DNA of 64,000 bases from Botryllus schlosseri. Lineage: Eukaryota. Made by a program: the position numbers and the translations under genes. Shown here one piece after another: positions 34,576 through 64,000 of this stretch. The stretch covers positions 36,334,001 to 36,398,000 of the forward strand of contig CM119371.1 of assembly GCA_051294905.1 (NCBI GenBank), written 5' to 3'. How positions within the stretch are numbered: the first letter of the stretch is position 1; each line of letters starts with the position of its first letter. The notes under the pieces are model-generated. The model ran no database searches, had not been told where the DNA came from, and saw only the letters and a list, made by a program, of their open reading frames with translations.

Positions 34576-36113
34576 AGTAGTATATAAGTGATAATCCAGC
34601 TCCGCTCCAATCACATCGCAGCATTTGATCACGTGACTACTTTTGAATTTCAAATCAAACAGAGAAAAGCGCGCGAAAGAGTTATATCAATAGTGCTTCA
34701 ATAGGGACAATGGGTGACAATCAGACATGGGGTGATTACTTCATGAATGTAATCGATTGCGATTACGATTACTTCCGAATGACGCGATTACGATTACGAT
34801 TACGATTACAGCAAAATCAGGAAGTATTCGATTACGATTACGATTACATTGGAAAAGTAATCACGATTACTCACGATTACATTTATTTTGCATTTTAGAA
34901 GTTATATTGGAAGACAATATATGGATTGCGCTGAAAAAGCCTAATGAGATAACAAACCCTCTTTAAAAAAGATGCGTCATTTACTTGTTACGTCATGTTG
35001 TACCCATTGCCCATTTTTATAGAGGACGATTTATCGCACCCAACCAATTGCATTCTTACCGGGTCCATGACTGCCGCACCCCAAATTTCCCAATAGGGTG
35101 GGGAGCGAGCTCGGGGGGGGGGACTCAATAGTATTTCGTAAACCAACAAAAATTATAGAGTATTCTCCAAAGATTTAATTTACTTGAAAATTCTCTGTAG
35201 ATAAGCTTGATTTTGGAATGCATACGTCTCCCCCTCAACAAAAAAGCATATATAATTTATAGTAGGCATGCATTTGAAACAAATGGTTGTTTAAAACACA
35301 TTGTTTAAAACTTGTGTTTTAAAACAATGTTTTAAACAAAGGCTTTAAAAAAACTAAATTGTGTTTTTTTTTAATTTGTAAAATTATGCCATAATTGTGT
35401 AAAAGCTTCCCACAATTACCACCCGATTCGGCCGACGTACATCGATATGAGATGGTTGGAACCCCTCAAAATATTCGGTTAAACAGTTATAGTACAGATA
35501 TTTCGTCAAAGGAACTATATTTACCCTATATTTTCAATTGTCAATGTCAATCCACATTGGTGACGTCAAGACTTGAAAAAAAAATTAAAAAACATGAAAA
35601 AAAATAAAAATCATGTTTTAAGCAAGGGTATGTTGTAAACATGCTCTCTTTAAATTTATTTTTGTTTTAAATGCAACCCTAATTTATAGCAATAGGCATT
35701 TAGTCAATACCGTACCACGACACACCAAAAGACATATGCAATTTCGACCAACATGCGACTTCACGAAGTGTGCTACTAAAGAAAGACCTTGGCCGAAACT
35801 GAGGGTATGTGTCCATTGTCAATAGCCGCGCTGGGTGGGCGTGACTAATAGTCCAGTCCTTCCAATCCGAGCCCACAATGCAAATGCCACCCGGACACCC
35901 ACAGAGCATTAAAGACATGACAATTTGTGTGTGCGTCTCACGAAGGTTTTTCTTTTAGTCTACTACGTTAGGGATACAACAATATCTTTTGATTATACAA
36001 CATACCGGAAATCACGAATTAACTACATTCACTAAAGCAATTATAACAAGATAACAGACGTTATAATTATGAATTACGTGCCCCCAGCTCTACAGGTAAA
36101 TCTGACCATCGGG

Positions 36114-36151
<38 letters not shown>

Positions 36152-37421
36152 TAAAAATTAATAATAATGTAATGCGATTACCAATGTTATTGACGAAATT
36201 CAGTCTTCAACTTGAAATTATCACCCTATGGGGGCTAAAGACTAACGTTTGGACTGGGGGACGAATAGCTGTTTTGGTCCTGAATCTATAGCTACAACCC
36301 ACACTAACATGATATATAAGCCCATGGCTATGGCGGCAGGTCCCAATGTTGAGTAAAGACTTATGAAATAACGATTAGCGCATGTTTCAAGTAGAGTAAT
36401 ATGAGAATAAGATGAAGAGAACATAAAATTCTGCCTTCATCCTAATACAGATAATGTACGGCAAGCTGCCGCTACGAGAAACGGCAAAAACGGCACGGTT
36501 GTGGTATATATCAGCAACTGTTGATTTTTATTGCTTCGTTGTGGAAACCGTAATGTTATATTTGACGGGTACAAAATTTCAAATCTTTGTCCGGTGTACG
36601 TACGTACTACATAGGCCTACTGCTCGCCACGCAGCAACGGTCAAACTGCGTTTGCATAACCAAACATCAATACACAAGTTACTTGGTAGAGTGGTGATTA
36701 ATTATCCTACTCCGGGGTACCGGCGTGTGGAACGGGTTGATAACCTGATATACAGCACGGCCGGTGTTCTTACAATCACGCGAATGCACGTGACGTACAT
36801 CGAGTATCTATTTACTGTGGATACTTCTTACGCAATGACTAGCAAAGCTAAAAGGTTACTTCTGACGTAATAATGAGCAATGGCATTTAAAAATCAGACG
36901 TTTGTGTTATCATGAACCTGGTATAATACATCTTCCTTGTTCACGAATGTTCAGTTTATGTCATAGTCCTTGTACAAATAAAAAGTAATCGTTCTTTCAC
37001 AAAGAAATCGATTAGATACAGGAAGTAGTCGATTACGATTACGATTACTTCGGGATTTTTTCGAATGTAATCGATTGCGATTACGATTACTTGAAAATGC
37101 TGTAATCGTCGTAATCGATTACGATTACTAATCGCGATGACCCCATGTCTGGTGACAATATATGTCAATAACGGGCGTGACCATCATTGTATTGACAATG
37201 ATTGTGTCAGCTGATTGCATAATGGGTATTAATGGGTGTGGGTTAGGAGAGCGAACCGTGACAGCATAATGGGGTGTGTGGTAGCGAACGTTACGGTATT
37301 GTGCAATGGTTAATACCGTAGACAAGTCCAAAGCTAGTGATATTACACCATACACAGCTTTGATCACGTGACAAATTTGTAATTATATATTTTTTTAGCA
37401 TCACTACAAATTATTCTTATT

Positions 37422-37430
<9 letters not shown>
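34576..37430. repeat. Left terminal inverted repeat of Polinton (~415 bp after removing nested insertion)
   Basis: 37382-37428 is reverse complement of ~63954-64000 (1 mismatch); 34628-34683 matches 63688-63743; starts with AGTAGT. Confidence 0.7.
34722..37151. mobile_element. Non-autonomous hAT-type element with (GATTAC)n subterminal repeats inserted in Polinton left TIR
   Basis: TIR CAGACATGGGGT / ACCCCATGTCTG; perfect TSD GTGACAAT (34714-34721, 37152-37159); contains (GA)n at ~36117-36148. Confidence 0.9.
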
Positions 37431-37460
<30 letters not shown>

Positions 37461-62987: not shown

Positions 62988-63152
62988 GCCTATCGAATGA
63001 TAGTATTCGAACTGTCGCACTTGCTTTCAAATAAATTATAATTCAATCTAATTATACATGTAAATAGAAATAGGTTACAGAATAATGAATGATATGATTA
63101 ATATATGAAATGACATGCGTCGCGCATTTCAAATCTACAACAAAAAAATATA

Positions 63153-63479
63153 TTAATGTATGAGATGAGATGCGTCGCTCATTTCTAATCTGTAACAATT
63201 TTTCATAAATAGGCTGTTTAATTCCACGGCGGTTCCTTGTTTGATAGTAATACACTTTCCATTTATGCGGACATCTTCCTCATTAATCTTCATTGATTTT
63301 TTTTCGTTGTCTTCGTCACGTATGATCACCCACGTATATCCTTTACGGCGTTTTATTATGAACTGCTGCTCAAATTTTATCGTCGCTACACCCGTTACTA
63401 TTATACTCTTTGAAGTTTGGTCCATTGTAATATTTGTTGGAGATTCGAATTTGACATCGTTAATCACTATTCTTCCCAT
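63153..63479 (-). CDS. Small beta-rich hypothetical protein (108 aa)
   Basis: ATG ORF between E2 and right terminal repeats. Confidence 0.6.
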   Translation of the reverse strand: MGRIVINDVKFESPTNITMDQTSKSIIVTGVATIKFEQQFIIKRRKGYTWVIIRDEDNEKKSMKINEEDVRINGKCITIKQGTAVELNSLFMKNCYRLEMSDASHLIH

Positions 63480-63550
63480 CGTCGCTCAATTTCGTATTGA
63501 ATGACTTAGCATCAAATTTGTGACTTAAATAGTTCCCTAAACTTCTTCTA

Positions 63551-64000
63551 CAATCATTGTCAATACAATGATGATCACACCATCGCGGAATAAACATATA
63601 TATATGATCGCAAACTTGTCACGTGATCAAAGCTATGTATGGTGCAATATCGCTAGGTTATTACCCATTGTGCAATAACGGTCACACAACTCTTTCGCGC
63701 GCTTTTCTCTGTTTGATTTGAAATTCAAAAGTGGTCACGTGATTGGAGTCGGTCTAAATACCCACTTTGACGCGTTAATCAAAACAACAGCAACGAACGC
63801 TAGGCGAGATGGGTAGAAGACTGCAAATCCTGAACAATGGAGAGTGTAACACCAGAACGAGCGAAAATATACTTCGAACATTTGGACAAGCACTGGGAGA
63901 GGAACTGGGATGGAGCTTGCGATGGGATGGCTGTATAGGAATAATTGGACTGTATATAGGAATAAGAATGATTTGTAGTGATGCTAAAAAAATATATAAT
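63551..64000. repeat. Right subterminal repeats and inner edge of right TIR
   Basis: Inverted matches to left end: 63551-63581~37174-37204, 63612-63680~37294-37380, 63688-63743~34628-34683, 63954-64000~37382-37428. Confidence 0.8.

Follow-up and report, generated by a model that had tools for sequence, protein, structure and literature searches.

What kind of element begins at position 34576 of a 64,000-nucleotide stretch of the Botryllus schlosseri genome (GCA_051294905.1, contig CM119371.1, positions 36,334,001 to 36,398,000; hereafter the window), does it end just beyond the right edge of this window, and what does it carry besides its viral genes? The sequence from 34576 onward is a Polinton/Maverick (Polintoviricetes, Eupolintoviridae), i.e., an endogenous polintovirus copy that is young but broken. 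The Polinton class has been described (PMC11161782), and Eupolintoviridae is the family formerly called Adintoviridae (PMC12451622). An animal host is also what the death domain, the wealth of transposons around the element, and the taxa of the capsid and polymerase relatives point to. We propose, with a probability of roughly 0.85, that it is a recent, now broken copy of a young multi-copy Polinton family, that its right terminal inverted repeat (TIR) likely ends ~370 bases past the window, and that its intact relatives would replicate, integrate, and likely use their cargo against host cell death. The gene inventory and the lesions can be read directly from the window, and the functions attached to the genes below are predicted ones.

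The left TIR (34576-37429, plus strand) begins with AGTAGT and measures 416 bp net, being interrupted by a nested element (insertion 1, see below). Directly before AGTAGT stands TGCATT (34570-34575), a candidate 6-bp target-site duplication (TSD), and both are present where the first-pass annotation had placed the start of the element. Subtracting the four nested insertions plus one TSD each, we recomputed a net element length of 19,412 and a projected end at 64368, where the first-pass annotation expects ACTACT and a second TGCATT; this reproduces the arithmetic of that annotation, including the 416 bp of the left TIR. A 19-kb element with (AGT)2 ends, a TIR of ~400 bp, and a 6-bp TSD conforms to the published pattern, as vertebrate Mavericks are reported to span 12.7-24.6 kb, with TIRs of 402 +/- 276 bp, (AGT)2 ends, and 6-bp TSDs (Barreat and Katzourakis, 2021, PMC8097293; for this and the other papers cited, comparisons refer to parts of their text). 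The 24-base left terminus had 0 matches in viral contigs and in metagenome contigs.

At the other side, 63953-64000 (minus strand) is the inner 48 bp of the right TIR, cut off by the window end, beyond which the outer 368 bp would lie. Inverted, 37382-37429 agrees with it in 47 of 48 bases (E about 1e-17), and the pairing of 64000 with 37382, from which the first-pass annotation had projected the right end, is present as claimed. A short distance inward, 63549-63744 (minus strand) is an internal mosaic of TIR modules in shuffled order, corresponding to TIR positions of about 52-110, 201-219, 321-366, and 164-193. This mosaic is absent from the earlier annotation and could be mistaken for a broken right end. 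It carries two TCACGTGA boxes, and two further ones are found in the left TIR at 34629 and 37364; these four, a TIR pair and a mosaic pair, are the sole ones in the window. Each pair stands upstream of an inward-reading gene, and the pairs are possibly duplicated promoter modules.

To place these repeats in the family, contigs of four of the 24 listed public runs (X1, X5, X12, and X13) were compared with 33400-53300; core depth is the mean of the core contigs listed, and contig depth is not equal to copy number. The junction that skips insertion 1 has a depth of 377.8 in X1 (2.2x core) and 45.1 in X5 (2.4x core), and reaches 4.5x core depth in X13, while the contigs of X12 contain no such joint. 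The joint for the shuffled piece is at 0.8x core depth in X1 and 0.9x in X5, and 31 letters within the joint of 34683 to 37334 are identical to window positions 63657-63687 on the minus strand. The ~2x versus ~1x depth in X1 and X5, the two better-covered runs, fits two TIRs and one mosaic per element, and the presence of the ~1x joint beside the ~2x TIR junction in two of the four runs argues that the mosaic is a family-wide internal feature and not damage to this copy. The long TIR typical of Polintons is thereby represented by the inner 48 bp on both sides and by ~2x depth in two of the four runs.

Both ends could nevertheless be read differently. In X1, the left junction is covered by a contig of 643 bases (33956-34598, 0 differences, depth 10.9) that stops at 34598. 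On the assumption that contigs overlap by 30 bases, the 7 bases preceding AGTAGT would also belong to a second path, starting at 34569. If the left boundary lay one base further left, the duplication would be the palindrome at 34569-34574 instead of TGCATT, and a palindromic duplication would yield such sharing via the element's own right end; by our estimate, the chance of such a contig end among ~30 ends is under ~1%. We consider this register unlikely, as it is based on a single contig end and on assumed assembler behavior, and as the published (AGT)2 ends and 6-bp TSD match TGCATT followed by AGTAGT directly (PMC8097293). TGCATT is probably the true duplication, and it is improbable that the duplication is neither TGCATT nor the palindrome. 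Neither an empty site nor the right flank was found among the 24 listed of ~4100 loose ends, which is informative neither way. The right end, in turn, may be rearranged or truncated, with 63549-63744 being the wreck of the true end and the TIR not continuing colinearly: end sequence does lie out of order there, and the window shows no more than 48 bases of the right TIR. However, a shuffled piece that is common to the family at ~1x in two of the four runs, with the TIR junction at ~2x in the same runs, makes such a wreck quite improbable; as a sub-case, damage private to this copy beyond 64000 is possible. A colinear right TIR, running ~370 bases past the window, is thus the strongly favored arrangement.

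Between these ends, the core viral genes all lie on the plus strand. The protein-primed DNA polymerase B is encoded in two pieces around insertion 3 (44605-52122) and was assigned through 193 longer homologs, many of them with PF03175; neither piece itself has a direct Pfam match to PF03175. The pieces span residues 18-808 and 803-1300 of a 1300-amino-acid relative (P0175), nearly end to end, and the single stop occurs where the first alignment runs into insertion 3. Next come an A32-type packaging ATPase (52151-52771; PF04665, E 1e-10), two open reading frames (ORFs) of 101 and 154 amino acids in the PM/PZ position (52807-53674; position according to the gene order in PMC8097293), which have no family match in Pfam, NCBIfam, or PHROGs, and an rve integrase with a C-terminal chromodomain (53662-54647), which also matches retroelement integrases. 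The integrase is frameshifted near 54.3-54.4 kb, with PF00665 (E 5e-13) and the chromodomain PF00385 (E 2e-11) in different frames.

The morphogenesis genes follow. Two paralogous ORFs of 276 and 249 amino acids (54804-56380; pairwise E 2e-6) occupy the minor-capsid position, which suggests their identity; they have no family match, and the fold model reaches a predicted local distance difference test score (pLDDT) of 34. A basic 122-amino-acid ORF (56358-56726) is placed as PW by its position. The major capsid gene (56777-58055) is 69-72% identical to P0001, an intact relative of 426 amino acids, with the help of which a frameshift near 57.7 kb was located. P0001 groups with double-jelly-roll clusters of animals (Atlas score of 0.98 to animal clusters with PF21738 on 24-30% of their members; recognition 2161, below the 2300 mark), and the match of PF21738 to the capsid protein itself is below the cut-off (E 0.011). 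The capsid is divergent, with one relative at 69% and the next at 23-24% identity. Directly downstream is a likely maturation cysteine protease (58052-58513), which has a weak match to S273R (E 0.024); His, Asp, Gln, and Cys align with those of S273R, and the place after the capsid gene fits. The "complete gene set" of the first-pass annotation therefore holds by homology for the polymerase, ATPase, integrase, and major capsid, weakly for the protease, and by position only for the minor capsid and PM/PZ/PW-type genes.

The element is young by substitution count, as the annotation had proposed in speaking of recent integration: it differs from the family contigs at 25 of 5843 bases in X1 (0.43%) and at 78 of 9284 in X5. 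Core depth in X1 is ~16x that of the left junction, and a dozen or more close copies in this run are roughly hinted at. Relatives without insertion 1 are found in three of the four runs, relatives without insertion 2 are represented in X1 by a skip joint at 1.0x core depth, and relatives without insertion 3 by an X5 contig of 5645 nt. Of the further suggestion that intact relatives may exist, the part that stands is that relatives free of insertions 1-3 do exist; no wholly intact copy was seen. No single intact copy is demonstrated by these data, because contigs merge copies and because the frameshifts and insertion 4 lie outside the compared 33400-53300. Close relatives of the capsid and integrase genes had no loci in viral contigs. 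Separately, a joint across part of the ATPase gene (52329-52409) exceeds core depth in X1, at 494, and one X13 contig departs from the element after 52480; these observations point to either a deleted derivative or a related subfamily of higher abundance.

The lesions of this copy consist of the two frameshifts just described, matching the number claimed earlier, and of four insertions. Searching 34500-64000 for inverted ends bordered by direct repeats yielded six rows with 8-bp duplications, of which four are whole nested elements with TIRs and perfect 8-bp TSDs and two lie inside the repeat arrays of insertion 1. Insertion 1 (34722-37151, CAG...CTG ends, 8-bp TSD; 2430 + 8 = 2438) is located in the left TIR, insertion 2 (41712-43792, 8-bp TSD; 2081 + 8 = 2089) close to the 3' end of a large orphan frame, insertion 3 (46987-50626, 130-bp TIRs, with broken transposase-like frames on its minus strand; 3640 + 8 = 3648) in the polymerase, and insertion 4 (60645-62842, with a degraded BED-finger/transposase frame; 2198 + 8 = 2206) in the E2 gene. 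The sizes 2438, 2089, 3648, and 2206 are those given by the first-pass annotation. We take all four to be hAT-like, applying the general rules for ends, TSD, TIRs, and a BED-finger transposase; 8-bp TSDs and TIRs are found in four of four, and the transposase signal is a zf-BED match in insertion 4 with an E of 0.18, below the cut-off. In X1, X5, and X13, contig depth over the nested elements exceeds core depth by factors in the hundreds, and four insertions in a young copy thus fit very abundant, recently active transposons. The intervals 34722-37151 and 41712-43792, whose summed contig depths are hundreds-fold over core in three of the four runs, also carry further nested repeats. With these lesions, the copy cannot replicate, integrate, or make and package capsids unaided.

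Downstream of the core genes is an open frame of 246 amino acids (58870-59610, plus strand) encoding a C14 protease (PF00656, E 3e-13), which we refer to as metacaspase-like. It contains the GHG and CxSG catalytic motifs, and His79 and Cys131 are invariant in all five aligned sequences, i.e., this protein and four relatives at 50-88% identity. The best six PDB sequence matches (E below 0.003) are five metacaspase chains from plants and yeast and Geobacter GSU0716, and no animal caspase is among the 11 PDB sequence matches. In the Foldseek search, ranks 1-19 are metacaspases or GSU0716, MALT1 first appears at rank 21, and caspase-11 at rank 25; the top fold matches are plant metacaspases and giant-virus C14 proteins, with 11-20% identity in the fold alignments. 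By predicted sequence and fold relationships, the protease is closer to metacaspases than to caspases or paracaspases, and in the alignment an Asp-rich stretch coincides with one in plant metacaspase 4. Metacaspases cleave at Arg/Lys and are activated by calcium, and the Asp two residues before their catalytic Cys is part of the acidic substrate pocket. As this pocket Asp is replaced by Ala here, the label "metacaspase-like" is used instead of metacaspase. The enzyme is probably an active protease.

The origin of this gene is less clear-cut. In a FastTree phylogeny of 203 rows (sequences under 170 amino acids omitted; 68 viral-contig rows picked by pattern and hence biased), the protease falls in its own long-branch clade of seven sequences (support 0.996), none of them named. 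Support for the junction with the nearest viral rows is weak (0.85), the two of these rows that were inspected look like phage contigs, and no donor is singled out. A search with the metacaspase-like profile found no locus of close relatives in viral contigs or JGI metagenomes. Metacaspase-like genes whose catalytic motifs are intact also occur on two viral contigs of phage-like character (L027:2972-3832 and L043:267-1079). To our knowledge, metacaspase-like proteases are foreign to animals. Our tentative reading, plausible without being favored by the odds, is that a metacaspase-type protease of non-animal origin (giant virus, phage, or microbe) was acquired by an animal polintovirus lineage and has stayed active there, alongside an E2, a death-domain decoy, a BIR protein, and a tRNA of the lineage's own. 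Metacaspases have been described from plants, fungi, bacteria, and giant viruses, where their role in giant viruses is unclear (PMC10583209). We found no paper linking a metacaspase-like gene to Polintons in a search that covered literature other than subscription papers, Repbase reports, and supplements, and a term search of the main text of PMC11131425 and 10.64898/2026.10.13.758929 did not return the word caspase.

The remaining cargo is arranged with a death domain and a BIR gene on the left and an E2, a tRNA-Ala, and the C14 protease on the right. On the left, a solo death-domain gene of 105 amino acids (37461-37778, plus strand; PF00531, E 3e-10) has the FADD death domain as its best PDB match (E 2e-6), and a single-BIR (IAP-type) gene of 117 amino acids (39142-39495, minus strand; PF00653, E 1e-10) matches the BIR domains of NAIP and XIAP. 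On the right, an E2 ubiquitin-conjugating enzyme similar to UBE2D/Ubc4 (60302-62987, minus strand) is split by insertion 4, with PF00179 in both pieces and a PDB match at E 1e-35. Near it is a tRNA-Ala gene (60121-60192, minus strand; ARAGORN; Rfam RF00005, 73.4 bits), in which a full cloverleaf, the UGC anticodon, G3:U70, and a downstream T run can all be read from the sequence. The G3:U70 pair is the identity rule of tRNA-Ala, and the T run serves as a terminator. Further tRNAs in this copy were called by a relaxed ARAGORN search and rejected for want of Rfam backing, Ala alone passing. Codon compensation by tRNA-Ala(UGC) is not supported by alanine codon use: GCA accounts for 70 of 254 Ala codons (28%), similar to other A-ending codons (23-34%).

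Interspersed with these genes are further ORFs. Two small overlapping ones encode 55 and 65 amino acids (37914-38275, plus strand), the second beginning with a hydrophobic, signal-peptide-like stretch. Nothing credible was found in NCBIfam or PHROGs for the other four: a 192-amino-acid ORF with no family found (38485-39063, minus strand); a large ORF of >510 amino acids with no known family, cut near its 3' end by insertion 2 (40173-41711, plus strand); a 136-amino-acid ORF with no family found (44013-44423, plus strand); and a 108-amino-acid ORF with no credible family (63153-63479, minus strand). An X5 contig spans 37914-38275 without gaps. Upstream of the BIR gene, between divergent genes, are two 130-bp tandem copies that are 86% alike (39548-39806).

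From what is known of the family, intact relatives would be replicated by the protein-primed polymerase, with priming at the (AGT)2 ends of the terminal repeats (PMC11161782, PMC8097293). The integrase would insert them, duplicating 6 bp of the target, and a double-jelly-roll capsid would package them in a particle-forming phase, again as expected for this family. During that phase, the death-domain, BIR, E2, and metacaspase-like cargo would likely delay or redirect host cell death. On anatomical grounds, the solo death domain may act as a decoy for FADD/RIPK1-type adaptors, the single BIR may dampen caspases, the E2 may supply ubiquitin transfer, and the metacaspase-like enzyme may cleave viral or host proteins, while the internal TIR mosaic may serve as a duplicated promoter for the leftward genes.

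The chief alternative is a genome-bound transposon with idle cargo, which forms no particles and in which the metacaspase-like gene serves no purpose. Neither particles nor extrachromosomal forms were seen in the contigs examined, searches of the viral and JGI metagenome collections found no relative, and the tRNA-Ala(UGC) matches no codon preference (GCA again being 70 of 254 Ala codons), all of which speaks for this alternative. Nonetheless, an intact 426-amino-acid capsid relative exists, the catalytic pair of the protease family has survived 50% divergence, and the tRNA retains its full cloverleaf and identity pair, and we regard idle cargo as a serious but rather unlikely explanation. A more distant one is recent transfer of the element between host species, or its existence as a freely circulating marine virus. 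The core was found in 20 of the 24 listed runs, from 12 studies with five organism labels and one marine metagenome, and 16 runs hold at least half of its words; no RNA run is listed among those with the core, which says nothing either way about expression. However, the three compared runs with other labels (X5, X12, and X13) all hold the nested host transposons far deeper than the core, X5 and X13 hold flank repeats too, and X12 holds the core only as scraps with a depth of about 2. This pattern is compatible with the same host, a closely related one, or traces of host DNA (the compared runs include neither label C nor the metagenome). As these three runs also carry host transposons, interspecies transfer is unsupported, and we consider it very unlikely.

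Several observations weigh against the proposed young, formerly particle-forming Polinton family with a colinear right TIR. At the ends, the shared path beginning at 34569 under the assumed 30-base overlap agrees better with a terminus shifted by one base to the left of 34576, and the 24 loose-end rows listed of ~4100 include none at 34576. The TIR ratio of 4.5x in X13 and the missing joint in X12 depart from two repeats per element, derivatives sharing the ends could also raise the junction depth, and X1 may be the source sample and hence not independent. Among the genes, the assignment of the minor capsid, PM/PZ, and PW comes from position alone. The fold model of the metacaspase-like protease is weak (pLDDT 58), the Asp that precedes the catalytic Cys by two residues in plant metacaspases is Ala here and Ala or Ser in the five aligned sequences, and its four relatives are not placed in any genomic context, with no locus in viral contigs or JGI metagenomes.

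A right end found as predicted would confirm an ordinary Polinton, and such elements, intact ones included, have been catalogued by the hundred. Of greater interest is the metacaspase-like cargo in a lineage with a divergent capsid. It has yet to be settled whether animal Polintons still act as viruses, and selection during an infectious phase would favor genes that handle cell death, ubiquitin, and translation. If the uptake reading is true, a cell-death control kit like that of large DNA viruses is contained in a 19-kb integrating genome, and a death protease foreign to animals has been placed in an animal germ line in many copies. The metacaspase-like open frame can be assayed alone, and a young family with close relatives makes selection on each cargo gene measurable.

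Similar to vertebrate Mavericks, the element has an (AGT)2 end, a TIR of ~400 bp, a size within range, flanking accessory regions, and the gene order polymerase-ATPase-(PM/PZ), followed by integrase-minor capsid-PW-major capsid-protease, and most vertebrate copies are degraded as well (PMC8097293). Unlike in typical vertebrate Mavericks, both modules are on one strand, an arrangement reported there for X. tropicalis. Two paralogs in the minor-capsid position, a divergent capsid, an internal shuffled TIR copy, and metacaspase-like, E2, death-domain, and tRNA cargo further distinguish it from the vertebrate elements as described in the same sections. With adintoviruses (Starrett et al., 2021, PMC8502044), it shares the association with animals, the polymerase, integrase, ATPase, likely protease, and capsids, and IAP homologs. 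Whereas Bcl2 and IAP are named for adintoviruses, metacaspase, E2, and death domain are not named in the sections of that paper compared; the paper as a whole mentions tRNA once, for MELD viruses with other replicases.

The metacaspase-like protease has the C14 fold and the GHG and CxSG motifs in common with the metacaspases of plants, fungi, bacteria, and giant viruses covered in the corresponding parts of PMC10583209, but it forms its own clade, has Ala for Asp before Cys, and is located in a small integrating animal element. In protist polinton-like viruses and virophages, 558 tRNAs were reported in 8300 genomes (PMC12220804), so that a well-formed tRNA gene in a small preplasmivirus genome has precedents; here, in contrast, the host is an animal, and this copy has one tRNA.

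Elsewhere in the window, to the left of the element, a 150-bp inverted repeat (97%) at 15479-18556 encloses reverse-transcriptase and RNase H frames (16166-18187, minus strand), presumably a DIRS-like retroelement with inverted ends. Two near-perfect hairpins are located still further left, at 238-737 (arms of 234 bases, loop of 32 bases) and 4342-4665 (arms of 133 bases, loop of 58 bases).

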